DNA from: a virus
Reading direction: 5' to 3' (one strand)
DNA length: 41,135 nucleotides
UHGV virus genome: UHGV-0094207
Positions within the stretch are counted from its first letter, which is position 1; every line of letters begins with the position of its first letter. Shown here piece by piece: positions 9,500-41,085 of this stretch. The translations under genes and the position numbers were made by a program. The notes beneath the pieces are model-generated. The model made no database searches. It saw only the letters and a program-made list of their open reading frames with translations, and was not told the DNA's origin.

Positions 9500-10505
9500 A
9501 ATCGTTCAATCACTGTCGGGGCAAAGGAATTGCATCACCATTCCGGTCCCGTACCTAGATTATTTCTCCGGCGATCAGCAGGCGCATGCTTTGGGTGCTG
9601 TGCTAAACCAGCTTGTGTTCTGGTCCGGTAAATCAGACCTGAATGATGGCTGGTTTTACAAAGAACACAGTGAGCTGGCGGCAGAGATTCGCGGCGTGAG
9701 TGAAGATCAGGTGCAGCGTCTGGTAAACAAGATTTGTACCCGATGGTTACCAGGGGTTGTTGAGAAGGCCCAGCGACAGGTAAACGGCACTAAAAAGACG
9801 CATTACCGTATCAATGGCGAAGCTCTAATCAACGTTTTATTCCCGGTAACGCTGGATTCCGCAGAATCGCGGAACGGGAAACGTGAAGTCGCGGAACCCA
9901 TTCCGCAGAATCACGGAACCGAAAACGTAGAACCGCGGAACCCTAACCGCGAAGTCGCGGAACCTATTCTCTATACAGATCATTACTCAGATCACCACAA
10001 ACAGATCAGTAACCCTTCTTGTCCGGAAGCTTCGCAACCGGACGCTGAAAGTTCATCTCCTGTTGAACAGTTTCTTGCTAAACATCCTGAAGCAGTGACC
10101 TGGAATGTACCGAAGCGGCAGTGGGGCAGTCAGGATGATTTGACTTGTGCGGAATACCTATGGGTAAAAATCATCGCGATGTACGAGCAGGCCGCTGAAA
10201 GTGACGGTGAAGTAGTCCGACCTAAAGAGCCTAATTGGGCATCCTGGGCAAACGAAGTGCGCCTGATGGTGGCGCAGGACGGCAGAACGCATAAGCAAAT
10301 TTGCGCACTCTTCAAACGAGCTAATCAGGATTCCTTCTGGTGCAAAAACGTCCTCAGCCCTTCAAAACTTCGCGAAAAGTGGGACGAATTAAGTCTGAAG
10401 CTTTCCGTGTCCATGAAACAGCCTACAGGTGATTCACCAGTAGCACGGGCCAGTTATCAGACCGTTGATTACTCACTGCCAGAAAATTCGGGGTTCCGCT
10501 CATGA
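9483..10505 (+). CDS. Replication initiator (lambda O-like) containing the iteron origin
   Basis: 340 aa. N-terminal 'NQLVFWSGKSDLNDGWFYKEHSELAAEI' resembles the O-protein N-domain; a central repetitive linker 'REVAEPIPQNHGTENVEPRNPNREVAEPI' is encoded by the iterons. Confidence 0.65.
   Translation: MSQIFEIVQSLSGQRNCITIPVPYLDYFSGDQQAHALGAVLNQLVFWSGKSDLNDGWFYKEHSELAAEIRGVSEDQVQRLVNKICTRWLPGVVEKAQRQVNGTKKTHYRINGEALINVLFPVTLDSAESRNGKREVAEPIPQNHGTENVEPRNPNREVAEPILYTDHYSDHHKQISNPSCPEASQPDAESSSPVEQFLAKHPEAVTWNVPKRQWGSQDDLTCAEYLWVKIIAMYEQAAESDGEVVRPKEPNWASWANEVRLMVAQDGRTHKQICALFKRANQDSFWCKNVLSPSKLREKWDELSLKLSVSMKQPTGDSPVARASYQTVDYSLPENSGFRS
9856..9970. repeat. Candidate replication-origin iterons
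   Basis: Two 44-bp tandem copies (attccgcagaatc[g/a]cggaac...cgcggaaccc) plus a partial third; six CGCGGAAC-like cores in total. Confidence 0.6.
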
Positions 10506-11380
10506 TGCCAAATAAATATTGCCAGGCGCTGGCAGAACTGCGCAGTAAACCAGCTCACGAATTGAAAGAAGTTGGAGATCAGTGGAGGACACCGGATCTG
10601 CTTTTCTGGGGGATCAACGCGTTATTTGGCCCATTAGTCCTGGACTTGTTCGCTGACGACGACAACGCGAAGTGCCCGGCATGGTACACCGCCGAAGATA
10701 ACGCGCTGACACAGAACTGGTCTGAACGTCTGGATGAACTGGGCGGCGCGGCGTTTGCCAACCCTCCATATAGCCGCTCGCAGTATCACGACAAGCAGGC
10801 GATCACGGGTATGACACACATCATGAATCACACCATGGACATGCGTGAAAGAGGTGGTCGCTATATTTACCTGGTGAAGTCTGCCACAAGTGAAACATGG
10901 TGGCCGGAAGATGCCGATCACATCATGTTTATTCGTGGTCGTATTGGGTTCGATCTGCCTGTGTGGTTTGTACCTGCTGACGAAAAACAGAAACCCACCA
11001 GCGCGTTTTTTGCCGGTGCCATAGCTGTATTCGACAAGTCATGGCGTGGTGAGCGGTTCAGCTATATCAACCGCACAGAACTGGAGGCAAAAGGTCGGGC
11101 ATTTATGGCGCTGGCTCAATTCGCTGTTGGTAAAGAGCAAACCATTGCAGTGCGGACAGCCCAGGAACCTGTAATGCCATTAGAAACTGAGTCACGAATC
11201 TGGCCTCTAGAGGTTGGTCTGGTGTTTAACCAGGTGGAAGGCGTTGACGTATTGAGCGAGGCTCAGCAGAACAAGCTGAAAGCCAACATCAATCAACTCT
11301 GGCTGGAACGAACGGCCACCAGCGAAATCATTACTGTTGCTTCTGAACTTGTTCGCAATATGCGGGGAGAGATCGCGTGA
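10502..11380 (+). CDS. Phage Dam-type DNA N6-adenine methyltransferase
   Basis: 292 aa. 'DQWRTPDLLF' and the catalytic 'FANPPYS' (NPPY) motif. Confidence 0.7.
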   Translation: MMPNKYCQALAELRSKPAHELKEVGDQWRTPDLLFWGINALFGPLVLDLFADDDNAKCPAWYTAEDNALTQNWSERLDELGGAAFANPPYSRSQYHDKQAITGMTHIMNHTMDMRERGGRYIYLVKSATSETWWPEDADHIMFIRGRIGFDLPVWFVPADEKQKPTSAFFAGAIAVFDKSWRGERFSYINRTELEAKGRAFMALAQFAVGKEQTIAVRTAQEPVMPLETESRIWPLEVGLVFNQVEGVDVLSEAQQNKLKANINQLWLERTATSEIITVASELVRNMRGEIA

Positions 11381-33671: not shown

Positions 33672-36600
33672 ATGGCTAAAGAAAAAGTGTTAAAGGGCCG
33701 CAAGGGCGGCAGCTCCAGTTCCAGAACCCCTACCGAACAGCCTGATGATCTGCAATCTGTAGCGAAAGCCAAAATCCTCGTTGCGCTTGGCGAAGGTGAA
33801 TTTGCAGGACAATTAACCGGCAAAGATATCTACCTGGACGGAACGGCGCTGGAGAACGCCGATGGCTCCCAAAACTTCAGCGGCGTGACGTGGGAGTTTC
33901 GCGCGGGAACGCAGGCGCAAAAGTATATTCAGGGTATTCCCGGTACCGAAAACGAAATCAGCGTGGGAACTGAGGTATCAAGCGCCACAGCCTGGACGCG
34001 AACGTTTACCAATACGCAGCTTTCGGCAGTTCGCCTGCGTCTGAAATGGCCATCGCTTTTCAAACAGGAGGACGACGGTGATCTGGTCGGTTACTCGGTC
34101 AATTATGCGATTGACCTGCAGACGGGCGGCGGCGCATGGCAGACGGTACTCAATACCAGCGTGACCGGAAAAACAACGTCTGGTTACGAGCGCAGCCACC
34201 GTATTGATTTACCGCAGGTTGGAAGCACCTGGACAATCCGCCTGCGTAAGATAACCTCTGACGCCAACAGCGCGAAGATCGGCGACACGATGACGCTGCA
34301 GAGCTTCACTGAGGTGATTGACGCCAAGTTACGCTATCCAAACACAGCGTTACTCTACATCGAATTCGATTCCAGCCAGTTTAACGGTTCTATCCCGCAG
34401 ATCTCCTGCGAGCCCCGCGGTCGTGTTATCCGCGTTCCAGATACCTACGACCCTGAAACCCGTATTTATAGCGGTACATGGACCGGTGCGTTTAAGTGGG
34501 CATGGACGGATAACCCTGCGTGGATTTTTTACGATCTGGTTGTTTCTGACCGGTTCGGCCTCGGTCACCGTTTGACTGCCGCTAACATCGATAAATGGAC
34601 GCTTTATCAGGTTGCCCAGTATTGTGATCAGATGGTGCTAGACGGCAAAGGGGGCAACGGTACCGAACCACGTTATACCTGCAACGTGTACATTCAGGAC
34701 CGAAACGACGCTTACACAGTCCTGCGTGATTTTGCTGCTATCTTCCGTGGCATGACCTACTGGGGCGGTGATCAGATTGTTGCGCTTGCCGATATGCCGA
34801 GAGATGTGGATTACGCTTACACCCGCGCTAACGTTATCGACGGACGCTTTACCTATTCCAGCAGCACGACAAAAACGCGGTATACCACGGCGCTGGTTTC
34901 CTGGTCTGATCCGGGTAACGCCTATGCAGATGCGATGGAGCCGGTGTTTGAGCAGCCTCTGGTGGCCCGGTACGGATTTAATCAGCTGGAAATGACAGCC
35001 ATCGGCTGTACCAGGCAATCAGAAGCGAACCGAAAGGGGCGCTGGGGTATTCTCACCAACAACAAGGATCGCGTTGTTTCGTTTGATGTTGGCCTGGACG
35101 GAAACATTCCGCAGCCGGGATACATCATCGCCGTGTCAGACGAGCTTCTGTCCGGCAAAGTTATGGGCGGCCGCATCAGTGCTGTTAACGGTCGCGTGAT
35201 TAAACTTGACCGCGTAGCTGATGCAGCAGCAGGCGATCGCCTTATTCTCAATCTTCCCTCCGGTGCGTCACAGAGCAGGACTATTCAGGCGGTTAACGGG
35301 GAATCAGTCACAGTCACCACGGCATACAGTGAGACACCACAGGCCGAAGCTGTATGGGTGGTTGAGTCAGATGAACTCTACGCCCAGCAGTATCGTGTTG
35401 TCAGTGTCTCCGATAACAATGATGGTACCTTCTCGATTACTGGCGCATGGCACGATCCGGATAAATATGCCCGTATTGATACCGGAGCCATCATTGACCA
35501 GCGGCCGGTGAGTGTGATCCCGCCGGGTAACCAGTCGCCGCCTGCGAACATCGTGATCAGCTCCTTTTCAGTGGTGCAGCAGAATATTAGCGTCGAAACG
35601 ATGCGCGTGAGCTGGGACCAGGCGCAGAACGCTATCGCCTATGAAGCGCAATGGCGCCGCAACGACGGGAACTGGGTTAACGTGCCGCGCAGCTCCACCA
35701 CGTCATTTGATGTATCGGGTATTTATGCCGGGCGCTACCTCGTGCGTGTGCGCGCTATTAATGCCTCTGAAATTTCCTCTGGCTGGGGCTACTCCGAAGA
35801 GAAAACGCTGACGGGCAAGGTGGGAAATCCGCCGAAACCTGTCGGCTTTGCGACAACGCCGATCAACTGGGGGATTCGCCTGAACTGGGGATTCCCGGCT
35901 AATACCGGGGACACGCTGAAAACGGAAATTCAGTACACCGCGAACAGTGATTTCTCAAATCCCCTTTTGTTGTCGGATGTGCCTTATCCGTCTGCCGAAT
36001 ACACCCAACTGGGTTTGAAGGCTGGTCAGGAGTTCTGGTACCGCGCGCAGCTGGTAGACAGAACGGGTAATGAATCAGGGTGGACCGACTGGGTTCGTGG
36101 TGAATCTAATGCGAATGCTGACGACTACCTGGGCGATATTGCTGATGACTTCCTGACATCTGCCGACGGTGACCGCCTGACCGGCGACATTGATACCAAT
36201 CTTGAAGCCGCATTGCAGAACGCGCTGGCCAACCATGCAACCGTGGAACACCAGTGGGCGCAGTACGGCGAGGTACGCGCGGATATTCTGGTGGTTAAAA
36301 CGACCATTGCGCAGGTCGATAAGGCCATGGCTGAAATGTCGACGCAGGTGCAGGCGCAGTTCAATGATGTGACTGCTGCGCTGGAAGATAAGCTCACCGC
36401 CGTGGTTGATGCGACCGGGGCATCTGCAATTTACACCCTTAAAACCGGAGTTCGAATAAACGGTGTGATGTATAACGCCGGGATGTCGATCGCGGTGCTG
36501 GCCGAAGCGGGTAAGCCAGTGGTCACTCGTGTCGGGTTTAACGCAAACCAGTTCGTCCTGATGAGTGGCAGCGGTGATACGCAATATTCACCCTTTGCTG

Positions 36601-36848
36601 TTGTTAATGGTCAGGTGTTTATCAGCGATGCGTTTATTCAGAATGGAAGTATAACAAGCGCCAAAATTGCTAACGCCGCAATCAACAATGCGAAAATCTC
36701 AGGTTCTATCTGGTCAGAAGGTTACAAAGTTGCAAATCAGGGGGGGTGGTGTCTTTCTAAAGCCGACAACAATCTTTCCTTTACGGGGCCGGAAGGTCGT
36801 GTGCTTGTGCAGATTGGTAAACTAACAGGAGTGGCTCCCAATGTCTGA
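33672..36848 (+). CDS. Host specificity / tail tip protein J
   Basis: 1,058 aa; 'RVIRVPDTYDPETRIYSGTWTGAFK' parallels the lambda gpJ segment 'RILQVPSNYNPQTRQYSGIWDGTFK'. Confidence 0.9.
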   Translation: MAKEKVLKGRKGGSSSSRTPTEQPDDLQSVAKAKILVALGEGEFAGQLTGKDIYLDGTALENADGSQNFSGVTWEFRAGTQAQKYIQGIPGTENEISVGTEVSSATAWTRTFTNTQLSAVRLRLKWPSLFKQEDDGDLVGYSVNYAIDLQTGGGAWQTVLNTSVTGKTTSGYERSHRIDLPQVGSTWTIRLRKITSDANSAKIGDTMTLQSFTEVIDAKLRYPNTALLYIEFDSSQFNGSIPQISCEPRGRVIRVPDTYDPETRIYSGTWTGAFKWAWTDNPAWIFYDLVVSDRFGLGHRLTAANIDKWTLYQVAQYCDQMVLDGKGGNGTEPRYTCNVYIQDRNDAYTVLRDFAAIFRGMTYWGGDQIVALADMPRDVDYAYTRANVIDGRFTYSSSTTKTRYTTALVSWSDPGNAYADAMEPVFEQPLVARYGFNQLEMTAIGCTRQSEANRKGRWGILTNNKDRVVSFDVGLDGNIPQPGYIIAVSDELLSGKVMGGRISAVNGRVIKLDRVADAAAGDRLILNLPSGASQSRTIQAVNGESVTVTTAYSETPQAEAVWVVESDELYAQQYRVVSVSDNNDGTFSITGAWHDPDKYARIDTGAIIDQRPVSVIPPGNQSPPANIVISSFSVVQQNISVETMRVSWDQAQNAIAYEAQWRRNDGNWVNVPRSSTTSFDVSGIYAGRYLVRVRAINASEISSGWGYSEEKTLTGKVGNPPKPVGFATTPINWGIRLNWGFPANTGDTLKTEIQYTANSDFSNPLLLSDVPYPSAEYTQLGLKAGQEFWYRAQLVDRTGNESGWTDWVRGESNANADDYLGDIADDFLTSADGDRLTGDIDTNLEAALQNALANHATVEHQWAQYGEVRADILVVKTTIAQVDKAMAEMSTQVQAQFNDVTAALEDKLTAVVDATGASAIYTLKTGVRINGVMYNAGMSIAVLAEAGKPVVTRVGFNANQFVLMSGSGDTQYSPFAVVNGQVFISDAFIQNGSITSAKIANAAINNAKISGSIWSEGYKVANQGGWCLSKADNNLSFTGPEGRVLVQIGKLTGVAPNV

Positions 36849-37158
36849 TTTTGGATTTGCCTCATGGGACACTAACGGCGTCCCGAATAACTATGGCATT
36901 AAACCTGTAACCGTGGTGGGTATCATCGATCTTGCTTTAGGTCAGAAAACGGGAAGCTACCAGTTCAGTCTGGAGCCTGGTTTAAAGGTTGGTTTTGCGG
37001 TTGGTACTCTGGAGGATAAAGGGACAATAAGTTATACAGACAAAAGAAGCATTATTGCATCTGGAAACACCATAACAATACAGCCTTCAGGTAGTGATGG
37101 GATTAATGATTACCCGGCAGTCAAAGTGCAGTTAATCGTTTTTGCGGAGACTGCGTAG
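36841..37158 (+). CDS. Hypothetical protein downstream of J
   Basis: 105 aa; 8-nt overlap with J; lower GC than J. Confidence 0.4.
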   Translation: MSDFGFASWDTNGVPNNYGIKPVTVVGIIDLALGQKTGSYQFSLEPGLKVGFAVGTLEDKGTISYTDKRSIIASGNTITIQPSGSDGINDYPAVKVQLIVFAETA

Positions 37159-37833
37159 ATGGCTAAATATGGCGCATTGATTTCATTACCTAACGGGAAC
37201 CCTTTTATCACGCCTGATTCCACACCAATGACGCTTTACCGGAAAGTCACTGTAAACTCAACTTTTGGAGGGGATTTTAACAGTGCTTCGGCGTCCGTGA
37301 CTGTCGACGGTCAGAAGGGAGGGATTGCATTTGCACGAACCAGCGCCCCGGCGAAGATATCAGCTTCAAAAAGTGGCAACACGTTCAGTGTTGATGCGTC
37401 TAATTACAGAGGTTCGGCTTTCGTGCTGGAGGCGTATTTTTTTGCTATATATCCGCTCACCCTTCCTGCCTGGGGTGTGGCTATATGGGATGCCGAAGGG
37501 ACACTGGTACTTACGAATGAGTCCCGGGTATTAAGCGACCTTACAACTATAGGCTCACCCGGCGCTGCAACGGGTGGGCTTAACATCGATACATACATGG
37601 CAGGCAAATGGGCCGTAAATCCGATGGGGCTGGGGTCTGTTCTTCTGCATGCTGGTTCAGCACCTGGCGGACAACCAATAATCCAGCCTGTGGATGTGGG
37701 AACGGGGTGCTTCAATGAAGGTGTAGGAACAAGAATAAAAGGACTTTCATCAACAACAGCAAGTGGTTCTTCAGTCGGAACGACGAATAGCGGGATTGTA
37801 ATAACGGCGATAAACACAGCCGCATATGATTAA
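37159..37833 (+). CDS. Hypothetical protein downstream of J
   Basis: 224 aa, Gly/Ser/Thr/Ala-rich; contiguous with the preceding ORF. Confidence 0.4.
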   Translation: MAKYGALISLPNGNPFITPDSTPMTLYRKVTVNSTFGGDFNSASASVTVDGQKGGIAFARTSAPAKISASKSGNTFSVDASNYRGSAFVLEAYFFAIYPLTLPAWGVAIWDAEGTLVLTNESRVLSDLTTIGSPGAATGGLNIDTYMAGKWAVNPMGLGSVLLHAGSAPGGQPIIQPVDVGTGCFNEGVGTRIKGLSSTTASGSSVGTTNSGIVITAINTAAYD

Positions 37834-37941
37834 ACCGATCGATTTAAACGATCAATTTAAGAATATTGATCTATTAAAACTATTTTTATTATTCAATGCC
37901 ATTGGTTATTTTTTGTTTAAATAATTAACTCTGGTGTCGAA

Positions 37942-38178
37942 ATGAAAAATATAATTATTCCAGTTATTGCCTGTCTGGTGCTTTCAGCATGTTCAGGACC
38001 TGTTCTGGAGAAACAGAAACCTGTTTGTCAGGCTGAGTTAGTGGTTGGTGGGCTGCCCCAGTCAGTGCAGATTTACGGTGTACGAAAAGTTGCAAATCAG
38101 ACTGAGTACAGAGCCGGTTATCCATTTAACTGGCGATGGGTGAATAAAAATAACTTCACCCGTTCGAATTGCTCTTAA
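37942..38178 (+). CDS. Small lipoprotein, candidate Cor-like superinfection-exclusion protein
   Basis: 78 aa; signal peptide with lipobox 'LVLSAC'; AT-rich upstream spacer; terminator directly after; position between J and the tail fibre. Confidence 0.4.
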   Translation: MKNIIIPVIACLVLSACSGPVLEKQKPVCQAELVVGGLPQSVQIYGVRKVANQTEYRAGYPFNWRWVNKNNFTRSNCS

Positions 38179-38196
38179 TGCCTTACCAAAAAACAA

Positions 38197-38217
38197 CCCG
38201 CTCCGGCGGGTTTTTTA
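38197..38217 (+). terminator. Rho-independent terminator
   Basis: cccgc-tccg-gcggg hairpin followed by tttttt. Confidence 0.7.
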
Positions 38218-38240
38218 TTATCTGAATTCAGGAGATATCC

Positions 38241-39335
38241 ATGTCAGCAGGAACCTTAACCCTGACGAATAACTCTGCTGCGGTCGCTGGCAGCGGGACC
38301 GCGTTTACCACCGAGGTGGCAGCCGGAGATTTTATTGTTGTTACTGTCGGTGGCATTCCCTACACGCTCCCGGTTAAATCTGTGGAAAGTGGTACAGCGT
38401 TGACGCTGGTCAGTAACTTTACCGGGCCAACACAATCTGGCGCGGCCTGGTCAGCTGTTCCTCGTGTGGCGCTGAATATGGTCACCGCGGCGCTGGTGGC
38501 GCAAAGTGCTGAAGCGCTGCGAGGCCTGAATTACGACAAACAGAACTGGCAGCAGGTTTACAGTGGTGCTGGCAGCATCACCGTGAAGTTACCGGATGGC
38601 ACTACATTCACCGGGCCGTCATGGAAATATCTTTCTGACAACCTCGCGGATAAAGTAGACAGCAAAGATCCCCAACTAGGTACTGTGAATGGGAAAACAG
38701 GCGGAACCATTTCCACCCCAGTTTATAGCGTTGGAGCTAGTGGGGTAGTAACTCAGGACTCAAGTTATGGTGAGTGGTCATTTCTTTATCCATCCACTTT
38801 AAAAAAGATGGCCTACGGATTTTGTGAGAATTTTGGTGATCTGGTTTTTGTAACTACCGTTGCAACAAATACCGGGACAGAAAAATATTTTGCTATGCGT
38901 CAGAACGGTAATTTCAATACACAAGGAAATATTACCTGCGTCTCGCTGACCCAGACTTCAGATGCCGATAAAAAAAACGACATAAAACCCATTGAAGACG
39001 CACTTGGTAAAGTGATGGCTCTAAACGGTGTAACCTTCAACTGGAAGGACAGCGGCCTGCCATCTTCCGGTGTGATTGCCCAGGAGCTTATAAAAGTCCT
39101 GCCGGAGGCTGTCGGATCAGTCTTTGAAGATCATGATCAGTATGAGTCTGTTGAAGAAATCAATGCGGGCGGCGAGACGACAATCACCCGTCATCTTGTT
39201 AAAAAACGAGATGACAGCAAGCGTAGCTATACGGTGGAATATTCTGGCGTCGTTGCACTCTGTCTTCAGGCAATAAAAGAATTGAATGAAAAAGTTGACA
39301 GTTTGCTGGAACAGTCATCTGCCGTTAAAAATTGA
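38241..39335 (+). CDS. Tail fibre protein with C-terminal S74-type intramolecular chaperone domain
   Basis: 364 aa; N-terminal 'MSAGTLTLTNNSAAVAGSGTAFTT' fibre-type start; C-terminal 'DIKPIEDALGKVMALNGVTFNWKD' chaperone-like segment; GC drops in the distal half. Confidence 0.65.
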   Translation: MSAGTLTLTNNSAAVAGSGTAFTTEVAAGDFIVVTVGGIPYTLPVKSVESGTALTLVSNFTGPTQSGAAWSAVPRVALNMVTAALVAQSAEALRGLNYDKQNWQQVYSGAGSITVKLPDGTTFTGPSWKYLSDNLADKVDSKDPQLGTVNGKTGGTISTPVYSVGASGVVTQDSSYGEWSFLYPSTLKKMAYGFCENFGDLVFVTTVATNTGTEKYFAMRQNGNFNTQGNITCVSLTQTSDADKKNDIKPIEDALGKVMALNGVTFNWKDSGLPSSGVIAQELIKVLPEAVGSVFEDHDQYESVEEINAGGETTITRHLVKKRDDSKRSYTVEYSGVVALCLQAIKELNEKVDSLLEQSSAVKN

Positions 39336-39463: not shown

Positions 39464-39706
39464 TTAATCTGAAACCAGCCACATATCAGCCTCTTCAAAC
39501 ATTTCCTGAACAGTACGGCTTATCTGCTCCTTCTCATGCTTGCTGGCGTCAGTGTTGATCGCTGGCAGTGTCATCATCGGTTTAACCCGGACATCAGCAT
39601 CGGGGAAGATCCGGTGAACCCTCCTGGTCAATTCGCCCAGAATGATATCTTTTGCACGGGGCAGACCATCAAAATTCCTTTTGTCATAAACGAGTTCCAC
39701 GAACAT
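39464..39706 (-). CDS. dinI: DinI-family DNA-damage-inducible protein
   Basis: 80 aa; 'GELTRRVHRIFPD' and 'EKEQISRTVQEMFEEADMWLVSD' align with DinI as recalled. Confidence 0.8.
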   Translation of the reverse strand: MFVELVYDKRNFDGLPRAKDIILGELTRRVHRIFPDADVRVKPMMTLPAINTDASKHEKEQISRTVQEMFEEADMWLVSD

Positions 39707-39781: not shown

Positions 39782-40024
39782 ATGATGCCACGACGCAGCG
39801 ATATTGAAATAGCCTGGTATGCTTCGATACAGCAGGAACCAAATGGCCGGAAGACCGTCACCACGCAACGGTTTGTCCAGGAACTGAGCAAGGTTAACTG
39901 GAACTGGACAATGAAGCAGGCCAACGAATGGATCGAGTGGTATGTGACAACCTTCCGCGATGTATCAACGCAGGAAGGGGAGAACCGTACCTTTCAGCTG
40001 TTCAATCCAAACGGAGGACTATAG
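39782..40024 (+). CDS. Hypothetical protein, first gene of the divergent SOS operon
   Basis: 81 aa; purine-rich RBS before 'MMPRRSD'; stop 2 nt before the UmuD'-like start. Confidence 0.45.
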   Translation: MMPRRSDIEIAWYASIQQEPNGRKTVTTQRFVQELSKVNWNWTMKQANEWIEWYVTTFRDVSTQEGENRTFQLFNPNGGL

Positions 40025-40026
40025 CC

Positions 40027-40416
40027 ATGGGCTTCCCTTCACCTGCCAGTGATTACGTTGAAACAAGGATCTCCCTCGATCAGCAGCTAATCAGCCAGTC
40101 CGCAGCGACTTATTTCATGCGGGCATCGCGTTCACATTTCAGGGAAGGGATAATCCAGGGGGCGCTGCTTGTTGTTGATGCGTCACTTTCTCCCTGTGAT
40201 GGCTCGCTGCTGATATGCGCGATAGACGGAGAATTCAGGATCAAGCGATATCGGACTCATCCTCAGCCCCACCTGGTTAATCTGGAGAACGGGAGAAGGG
40301 AGGCGCTGCCAGCAGATGATGACGGTTACAGTTCTGCACCCGCTATATTCGGGGTGATCACGTACATCATTAATGATGCCAGGAACGCGGAGTTTGATGA
40401 CTGCCCGGTGATGTAA
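40027..40416 (+). CDS. UmuD'-like S24-family protein lacking the N-terminal pro-segment
   Basis: Starts 'MGFPSPASDYVETRISLDQQLI', which matches UmuD directly after its Cys24-Gly25 cleavage site; conserved Lys in 'GEFRIKRY'; the Ser-region is altered ('ASRSHF'). Confidence 0.65.
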   Translation: MGFPSPASDYVETRISLDQQLISQSAATYFMRASRSHFREGIIQGALLVVDASLSPCDGSLLICAIDGEFRIKRYRTHPQPHLVNLENGRREALPADDDGYSSAPAIFGVITYIINDARNAEFDDCPVM

Positions 40417-41085
40417 TCATATTGGCTGTATTAGTTCGGAGCCCTGATGTTTCACATTCCCGACGGCACGCGTCACGGCATGCCATATAAATTTATCAGC
40501 CGGCACGGAACCGTCGGCTGCAATTTCCGCCGCTTCTTTCCCTCCAATGTCCTGCCTCATCCATTCTCGAGCAGCATCTGGTGACAGTACCAGTGGCCGC
40601 CTATCGTGAATATCTACCAGTCCTTTGTCTGCAGCAGCCGTCACTATCAGGAATCCTTCTGCTTCATCTCCACGTTCGAATGGTGTGCTGCCGATCGCCG
40701 CCATGAATATCGGCTGGCCATCGGCTCGATGAATGAAGTAGGGCTGCTTTTTGTCACCTTCCTTTTTCCATTCATACCAGCCATCAGCAAAGCAAATGGC
40801 ACGACCATGCTGCCAGAGTGGTTTGAACATTCTGCTGGTGGCCGCAGTTTCAGAGCGTGCGTTAATTAGCGGTGGTTTATCCCACCATCCGGGGGCGTAT
40901 CCCCAGATAACTGGATCAAGATGGAGTTTCTCGTCACGTTCGCTCAGAAGCAGAACTTTGGTGCCTGGCGCGACATTAAAACGTCCGATCGGTTCGGGAT
41001 CGTAAGGGATATCGCGTTCTGCTTCTTCAGTAAGCAGAGCGAGATAGTCTTCACGCGTCATTGATTGTGAAAAGCGTCCACACAT
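40417..41085 (-). CDS. yedK: SRAP-family protein (YedK-like abasic-site processing protein)
   Basis: 222 aa starting 'MCGRF' (catalytic Cys2 hallmark of SRAP/YedK); stop codon directly abuts the UmuD'-like stop. Confidence 0.8.
   Translation of the reverse strand: MCGRFSQSMTREDYLALLTEEAERDIPYDPEPIGRFNVAPGTKVLLLSERDEKLHLDPVIWGYAPGWWDKPPLINARSETAATSRMFKPLWQHGRAICFADGWYEWKKEGDKKQPYFIHRADGQPIFMAAIGSTPFERGDEAEGFLIVTAAADKGLVDIHDRRPLVLSPDAAREWMRQDIGGKEAAEIAADGSVPADKFIWHAVTRAVGNVKHQGSELIQPI

Follow-up and report, generated by a model that had tools for sequence, protein, structure and literature searches.

The virus genome UHGV-0094207, a stretch of 41,135 nucleotides (nt) hereafter called the window, is a lambdoid, N15/phi80-like prophage featuring an integrase, a CI-like repressor, a Q antiterminator and HK97/N15-like tail genes. 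Between its tail genes lies a compact unit of an AT-rich spacer, the superinfection exclusion gene cor and an intrinsic terminator. As a cor gene, this locus is a matter of routine annotation; near-identical Citrobacter proteins are already named in RefSeq and the cassette has been published. The interest of the locus lies in the spacer as a regulatory region and not in cor itself. The spacer contains a conserved module with likeness to the OxyR/Dam switches of agn43 and gtr, which suggests, as far as sequence comparison can tell, a phase-variable superinfection exclusion. The unit comprises the following features:

37834 to 37941, plus strand: AT-rich spacer of 108 base pairs (bp), from the previous stop codon to the cor ATG, regulatory region of cor
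37837 to 37840 and 37850 to 37853: GATC-1 and GATC-2, flanking half site A, 13 bp apart
37838 to 37852, no strand assigned: predicted OxyR-type half site A, ATCGATTTAAACGAT, matching ATAGnTnnnAnCTAT at 8 of 10 positions
37868 to 37871: GATC-3, at the 5' edge of half site B
37869 to 37883, no strand assigned: predicted OxyR-type half site B, ATCTATTAAAACTAT, matching the consensus at 8 of 10 positions
37884 to 37889, plus strand: predicted weak -35-like element, TTTTAT
37907 to 37912, plus strand: candidate -10 hexamer TATTTT, predicted from a conserved TAnnnT
37942 to 38178, plus strand: cor, ATG start, 78 amino acids, signal peptide at residues 1-16, mature protein of 62 amino acids
37990 to 37992, plus strand: codon of the lipidated Cys17 of Cor, predicted from the lipobox
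38195 to 38222, plus strand: intrinsic terminator with a 7-bp GC-rich stem, TCCG loop and T run

By its sequence, the reading frame at 37942-38178 encodes a Cor-family lipoprotein and is an ordinary new member of a known cassette. The full translation is MKNIIIPVIACLVLSACSGPVLEKQKPVCQAELVVGGLPQSVQIYGVRKVANQTEYRAGYPFNWRWVNKNNFTRSNCS, and the N-terminus reads MKNIIIPVIACLVLSAC followed by SGP. The lipoprotein signal was assigned by rule: a short basic and hydrophobic leader with an M-K-N start precedes the lipobox L-S-A-C at residues 14-17, and the residue at +2 is Ser18 instead of Asp, which in this rule-based reading points to sorting to the outer membrane. The NCBIfam equivalog model NF047972 "phage exclusion lipoprotein Cor", which has a cut-off of 31 bits, was matched with 136 bits (E = 3e-40; residues 1-77 on profile positions 1-76 of 78), and PHROG 1119 "Cor superinfection exclusion protein" with E = 1e-25. 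Likewise, a tblastn search of 50,697 phage records yielded 216 matching records, 215 of them with at least 80% query coverage; the top matches were the annotated Cor proteins of mEp390, HK75, HK542, mEpX1, HK140, mEp213 and phi80 with 54-58% identity, and T1-like phages showed approximately 32-39%. The nearest proteins in a large protein collection are 95% identical, are named "phage exclusion lipoprotein Cor" and stem from Citrobacter freundii, braakii and related species. When 45 homologues of 52-94% identity are aligned, the residues M1, C17, C29, G36, Y45, Q53, A58, G59, P61, F62, W64, W66, F72 and C77 are invariant, and the window Cor has all of them. The original prediction, made from the sequence alone, had proposed a 78-residue lipoprotein with the lipobox LSAC and had called it Cor-like on account of its position. 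The reading frame and its invariant Cys17 bear out the former, and the profile matches the latter. A search of the Protein Data Bank (PDB) with the cor product returned only Tse1 amidases at E of about 0.7-1, which is not significant.

The spacer features a GC content of 24-27% (in windows of 120 nt) compared to 50-57% in the flanking tail genes, in agreement with the AT-rich spacer recorded in the original prediction. Across some 95 loci (Citrobacter, Enterobacter, Kosakonia, Phytobacter, phi80 and IMG/VR contigs), its length is almost always 103-111 bp, and this constancy persists while the flanking proteins drop to 40-55% identity. In a set of 22 spacer variants with mutual identities below 85%, every one has TAnnnT at one and the same aligned position, 28-33 nt ahead of the ATG. 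In 18 of them, the three GATC lie exactly at -70, -57 and -39 from TAnnnT, and this stretch of about 75 nt is free of insertions and deletions. The -35 region is poor across the variants (TTTATT or TTTATA), and phi80- and Enterobacter-type spacers feature an extended -10 element, TGnTATTGT. All three GATC are kept in the window and in phi80, whereas the N15 spacer lacks GATC-2 and GATC-3. In the records of phi80 and N15, nothing is annotated within the spacer.

Several other readings of the spacer were considered and rejected. A 32-residue reading frame at 37826-37924 had no family match, and its frame seems broken in other spacers when aligned by eye. The hexamer TTGATC was dismissed as a sigma-70 -35 element because 35 nt separate it from the invariant TAnnnT. 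As for an operator of a phage regulator, no second exact copy of the spacer inverted repeat was found in the window. Sites for Fur, FNR and IHF or a nucleation site for H-NS fitted in spacing and consensus less well than OxyR, as judged by eye. On the minus strand, an AATTATA block provides a perfect TATAAT 10 nt from GATC-3 in phi80 (L019, 5390-5500) and in three Enterobacter-type loci (L008, L009, L013), which recalls where the agn43 promoter stands with respect to the first GATC there. As a promoter this block was set aside, as neither a good -35 element nor a conserved downstream gene accompanies it in the phi80-type spacers.

The two predicted half sites were scored against the OxyR dimer consensus ATAGnTnnnAnCTAT with its 10 specified positions, by which count validated agn43 and gtr sites reach 8-10. 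They lie 16 bp apart, a gap that is constant across the spacer family, and the pair is unique in the window, with 0.28 pairs expected per 41 kb at spacer composition. In 18 non-redundant spacers less than 85% identical to each other, the mean information amounted to 1.80 bits at the positions specified by the consensus, 0.98 at its "n" positions and 1.04 in the gap, part of this conservation signal being forced by the selection pattern. Unforced and yet nearly invariant are T6 and A10 of site A as well as A10, C12, A14 and T15 of site B. In addition, an alignment of the spacer with the reverse-oriented regulatory region of E. coli K-12 agn43 has 39 identical columns out of 50 (78%) and one gap. 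None of 2000 shuffles equaled this score, even with the three GATC fixed, and the score of 27 compares to at most 15 elsewhere in the window.

In agn43, the GATC sites overlap the OxyR binding site (PMC3764049). For P22 gtr, transcription is activated by OxyR sitting on sites A-B, and methylation prevents OxyR from binding (PMC2909390). The switch regions of both were read directly from the genome sequence and allow the following comparison with P22 gtr:

Site A: TTGATCGgtaacaaCGATCAAT in P22 gtr, ATCGATTTAAACGAT in the window, ATTGATCG-N6/7-CGATCAAT in related spacers
Site B: ATAGATAAAAACTAT in P22 gtr, ATCTATTAAAACTAT in the window
Site C: TTGATCGcttgtatCGATCAAA in P22 gtr, no third site in the window

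Sites A and C of P22 gtr read TTGATCG-N7-CGATCAA, and half site A of the window has this same form, as it has that of the GATC-II/III site of agn43. The window thus has in common with agn43/gtr/opvAB-type switches ATCG-N7-CGAT half sites carrying two GATC 13 bp apart, and in both cases a second half site follows one to two helical turns away. Nevertheless, gtr has three half sites, of which the window spacer lacks the third, and the predicted OxyR site lies upstream of the predicted promoter in the window (at about -81 to -36), whereas in agn43 it is located downstream of the start. The region from about -81 to -36 is the usual location for an activator of the LysR type.

The module is further found apart from cor. 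IMG/VR was scanned for GATCGNTNNNNNCGATC-N14-GATCT, which gave at least 120 matches, and at least 51 of the matches precede cor homologues. Among the matches listed, to which the following counts refer, about a dozen GC-rich ones look like chance, and 24 of 38 non-redundant non-cor matches have extra bases beyond the search pattern (CGATCAAT ... ATTGATCTnnnnAnCnAT), with one of these 24 (L136) looking spurious. The non-cor copies precede small genes whose start codon often lies about 101-107 nt from GATC-1, as with cor, and TAnnnT is present at +70/71 from GATC-1 in 11 of the 24. Among the genes behind them are those for a secreted protein with a TonB_C domain (PF03544), for a Ner-like HTH_35 regulator and for several small membrane proteins. 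Judged by these sequence matches, the module has the look of a portable cassette that regulates accessory genes of prophages. Examples of non-cor modules among loci L104-L217 are L189 (2533-2900), L214 (779-1150), L113 (6379-6830), L116 (6792-7180), L117 (9938-10340) and L141 (9148-9450). The 527-bp region upstream of cor in phage T1 contains no GATC; accordingly, the switch-like module is absent from this lytic phage and goes with temperate ones.

In the proposed mechanism, transcription of cor in the lysogen would start at the weak promoter with its -10 element at 37907-37912, the start itself being expected near 37919. OxyR bound to unmethylated half sites would control this promoter and Dam methylation of the three GATC would keep OxyR off, the result being heritable ON and OFF lineages for cor, as with agn43, gtr and opvAB. 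An on/off switch of this kind would be biologically plausible, since Cor comes at the expense of ferrichrome uptake (PMC3594210). The known Dam/OxyR loci opvAB and gtr likewise modify the cell surface, with opvAB trading phage resistance against virulence (gtr: PMC2909390). That Cor exclusion in lambdoid prophages is phase-variable through competition of Dam and OxyR at a portable module of about 105 bp, which would also drive other prophage accessory genes, e.g., that of the TonB C-terminal-domain protein, is put forward tentatively and with somewhat less than an even chance of being correct. The main rival sees in the spacer an ordinary promoter region, a site for another binding protein or a recombination "linker". 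In this case OxyR would not bind, and cor would be constitutive in the lysogen or transcribed by late read-through only, without phase variation; the chance of this is close to even. Several observations speak for this rival and weigh against a switch: the -35 element is weak and the transcription start is predicted rather than mapped, the half sites are separated by 16 bp where agn43 and gtr have 17, N15 is reported to exclude and has lost GATC-2 and GATC-3, and conserved boundaries are to be expected at mosaic joints. Furthermore, no publication connecting cor with OxyR, Dam or phase variation was found, although the literature coverage was incomplete and this absence is no proof. An ordinary promoter or linker, in turn, accounts poorly for a conservation that is position-specific and tracks the OxyR consensus (1.80 bits compared to 0.98 at the "n" positions), for the identity of 78% to the agn43 switch with no equal in shuffles retaining the GATC, for GATC sites whose positions agree to the exact base in 18 of 22 diverged spacers and for the same module about 105 nt ahead of unrelated genes. 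While cor itself is already known, an OxyR/Dam-like switch in front of it looks new.

Downstream of cor, the terminator stem occupies 38195-38212 (AACCCGC TCCG GCGGGTT, followed by TTTTATT), 16 bases past the stop codon. Its folding energy of -13.5 kcal/mol corresponds to z = -2.9, and one of 200 shuffles was as good, which corroborates the strong terminator that had been predicted at this place. Because of an A run upstream of the stem, it could act in both directions. A perfect hairpin with T run follows cor in 54 of 64 distinct related loci, with one mismatch in most of the others, and the terminator is kept even where Cor is only about 55% identical. A feature-by-feature comparison of window positions 36841-38240 with L040, L041, L054, L063, L065, L067 and L068 included the two genes upstream of the spacer, which resemble gp22 and gp23 of N15. 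Identities to the window were distributed in two opposite patterns:

L040, L041 and L054: gp22-like 43-67%, gp23-like 59-64% (5' half), spacer 96-98%, cor 91-93%, terminator 89-92%
L063 and L065: gp22-like 88-92%, gp23-like 82-94%, spacer 73-74%, cor 79-80%, terminator 76-85%

The breakpoints are situated in the 3' half of the gp23-like gene and downstream of the terminator. Judging by these identities, phages exchange the spacer together with cor and the terminator as a single mosaic block, separately from the gp22-like and gp23-like genes, and exclusion and receptor-binding genes are thus not strictly co-inherited. The original prediction of cor residing in its own cassette is borne out by this joint inheritance of spacer, cor and terminator. 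With an own terminator, a deviant composition, independent inheritance and a promoter predicted from the conserved TAnnnT, this unit behaves in sequence as expected of a moron.

The genes surrounding the unit are:

33672 to 36848, plus strand: J-like central tail fibre/tip attachment protein (Pfam FNIII-A_GpJ, Phage-tail_3, Phage_Tail_Tip)
36841 to 37158, plus strand: gp22-like small protein, candidate receptor-binding accessory and first gene of the cor cassette (PHROG 557, E = 1e-21)
37159 to 37833, plus strand: gp23-like protein, candidate FhuA-binding protein and second gene of the cor cassette (PHROG 425, E = 5e-54, full length)
38241 to 39335, plus strand: side tail fibre with a C-terminal Peptidase_S74 chaperone domain (Pfam PF13884, E = 4e-15)

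The last 282 amino acids of the J-like protein are 72% identical to N15 gp21 and 75% to J of HK225 over the full length. The gp22-like protein shares 52% identity with gp22 of N15 and 48% with that of phi80, the gp23-like protein 53% and 47% with the respective gp23. In the annotated records of N15 and phi80, J, gp22, gp23, a spacer of about 110 bp, cor, the terminator and the tail fibre follow each other, and then a UmuD-like gene or DinI; from J to the tail fibre, the order in the window is the same. The position between J and the tail fibre, which had been likened to that in phi80/N15-type phages, therefore proved right in its outline, except that cor does not directly follow J but is separated from it by the genes at 36841-37158 and 37159-37833. 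Homologues of gp23, and mostly of gp22 too, precede cor in 15 of 17 genome loci and in 80 of 80 viral loci, the two genome loci deviating from this pattern being L014 and the truncated L016. The side tail fibre is itself mosaic, with 128 N-terminal amino acids that are 88% identical to N15 gp25 joined to a different C-terminal part ending in Peptidase_S74. Downstream of it lie a DinI-family gene (39464-39706, minus strand), an S24-peptidase gene (UmuD-like; 39928-40416, plus strand) and an SRAP gene (YedK-like; 40417-41085, minus strand), a cluster of SOS-related accessory genes with resemblance to what phi80 (DinI) and N15 (UmuD-like gp26) carry at this position.

A three-gene "cor cassette" downstream of J was described for T1, HK022, N15, ES18 and phi80; the phages carrying it are all FhuA-dependent, and relatives using other receptors lack it (PMC13164509). 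According to the conclusions of the BASEL study and of a 2026 preprint, the true receptor-binding proteins and the cognate exclusion protein are encoded at the locus downstream of gpJ, and alleles more than 30% identical over full length track the receptor (PMC8594841; 10.64898/2026.04.02.716166). As the full-length identities in the window exceed this value, the use of FhuA by the window prophage is predicted. The Cor proteins of HK022, N15, phi80 and mEp167 inactivate FhuA, lower ferrichrome uptake and protect against FhuA-dependent phages and colicin M (PMC3594210). With these, the window Cor has in common the length (77-79 amino acids), the lipobox Cys, two further invariant Cys and the motif YRAGYPFNWRWV, and the genes agree in position and terminator type; the window Cor differs in an identity of only 52-58% and in its probable Citrobacter host. 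T1 Cor (Drexlerviridae) is homologous with 32% identity and its gene also adjoins gp22/gp23 homologues and J but, unlike the window cor, is transcribed convergently to J-gp22-gp23. By homology, an FhuA exclusion function may be ascribed to the window Cor.

An AlphaFold2 model of Cor, with a mean confidence (pLDDT) of 82.5 and values above 88 for residues 31-70, consists of one signal helix and a five-stranded beta unit. A Foldseek search of the model against the PDB returned nothing below E = 0.001; the top matches, chromo/Tudor domains at E of about 0.06, were set aside as a generic small barrel without functional meaning. Against BFVD, a collection of predicted viral structures, the best match was a T1-like exclusion protein (E = 2e-5). 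The next matches, at E of about 0.02, were lipoproteins of Proteus phage Stubb, Escherichia phages slur09 and DT571/2 and Providencia phage PSTCR5, all of them T5-like phages. Still, the structural score cannot tell Llp of T5 from generic SH3-like barrels. The modelled fold agrees with the published view of Cor and Llp as a single structural family and by itself is no proof of it. T5 Llp requires a C11-C58 disulfide joining its two ends, which compares to the invariant Cys29 and Cys77 of the window Cor at positions 13 and 61 of the 62 mature residues. T5 Llp (PDB 8A60 chain B, 7QJF) has no detectable sequence similarity to the window Cor and, unlike the window cor, is encoded by an early lytic gene. 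For T1-type Cor, a published model has it on the periplasmic face of FhuA, as is seen for T5 Llp in PDB 8A60 (PMC13164509). By comparison with these cases, the mature Cor of 62 residues, probably clamped by a Cys29-Cys77 disulfide, would bind the periplasmic face of the TonB-dependent transporter FhuA and lock it in a state unusable by phage receptor-binding proteins. Lysogens would then resist their own phage, other FhuA-dependent phages and colicin M at the price of ferrichrome uptake. This FhuA-blocking mechanism would be transferred by homology from the Cor of phi80, N15, HK022, mEp167 and T1, and by analogy from T5 Llp.

Taken jointly, the locus is best explained by an FhuA exclusion lipoprotein of the Cor family, inherited as a mosaic unit and expressed in the lysogen from a weak promoter hypothesized to be governed by OxyR/Dam, an account that is considered likely as a whole. 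Nevertheless, a lipoprotein with the Cor fold might block a different TonB-dependent transporter such as BtuB or another siderophore receptor of Citrobacter. Cor/Llp-like proteins are known in BtuB-dependent phages (PMC13164509), and two of the results above weigh against FhuA, namely the low identity of 52-58% to Cor as encoded by E. coli phages and the recombination of cor independently of gp22/gp23, owing to which a match of exclusion protein and receptor-binding protein is not guaranteed. A target other than FhuA is regarded as unlikely in view of the equivalog-level NCBIfam model, whose cut-off was exceeded about four-fold, of gp22-like and gp23-like proteins that are homologous along their full length (47-53%) to their counterparts in the FhuA phages N15 and phi80, and of the extended cassette being reported only with FhuA (PMC13164509). 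The cor product, a small outer-membrane lipoprotein within a moron-like unit, would also suit a lysogenic-conversion protein of another role without exclusion activity, e.g., serum resistance like that of lambda Bor. This is highly improbable, as Pfam gave no family for it, Bor included, at E <= 0.1, while the Cor profiles match over its full length.

The host of the prophage is most probably Citrobacter. The closest genome locus to the cor region is from Citrobacter murliniae, and an IMG/VR contig (L020) is 100% identical across this region. E. coli was ruled out as the source because the window DNA has no match among E. coli complete genomes. A cor gene of the phi80 type, by contrast, is carried by 49 complete genomes of E. 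coli. In the early region, the prophage encodes a phage-type DNA N6-adenine methyltransferase (10502-11380, plus strand; Pfam PF05869 "Dam", E = 7e-45), and phi80 has a dam pseudogene at a comparable place. An unannotated cor homologue (49% identity) is found in Aeromonas phage pAEv1818 (L102; NC_070759.1, 1801-2031) behind gp22/gp23 homologues; its spacer features three GATC in permuted order with spacings of 32 and 13, the pair being nearest to the gene. Enterobacterial-type cor genes further occur in a metagenome-assembled genome labelled "Mucilaginibacter sp." (L013, a 1207-bp contig), in "Campylobacter phage A15b/A136" and in "Pseudomonas phage Motto"; in these records of unrelated hosts, they probably stem from mis-binning or from contamination with coliphage sequence.

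Cor disables a siderophore transporter and hence carries a cost, so that an epigenetic switch would explain how prophages can carry it cheaply. If this holds true, populations of lysogens would hedge between phage resistance and siderophore uptake. Provided that the module binds OxyR, a blocker of a phage receptor would join the short list of Dam/OxyR phase-variable loci comprising agn43, gtr and opvAB, and the finding would point to a reusable switch cassette that has spread among the accessory genes of prophages.
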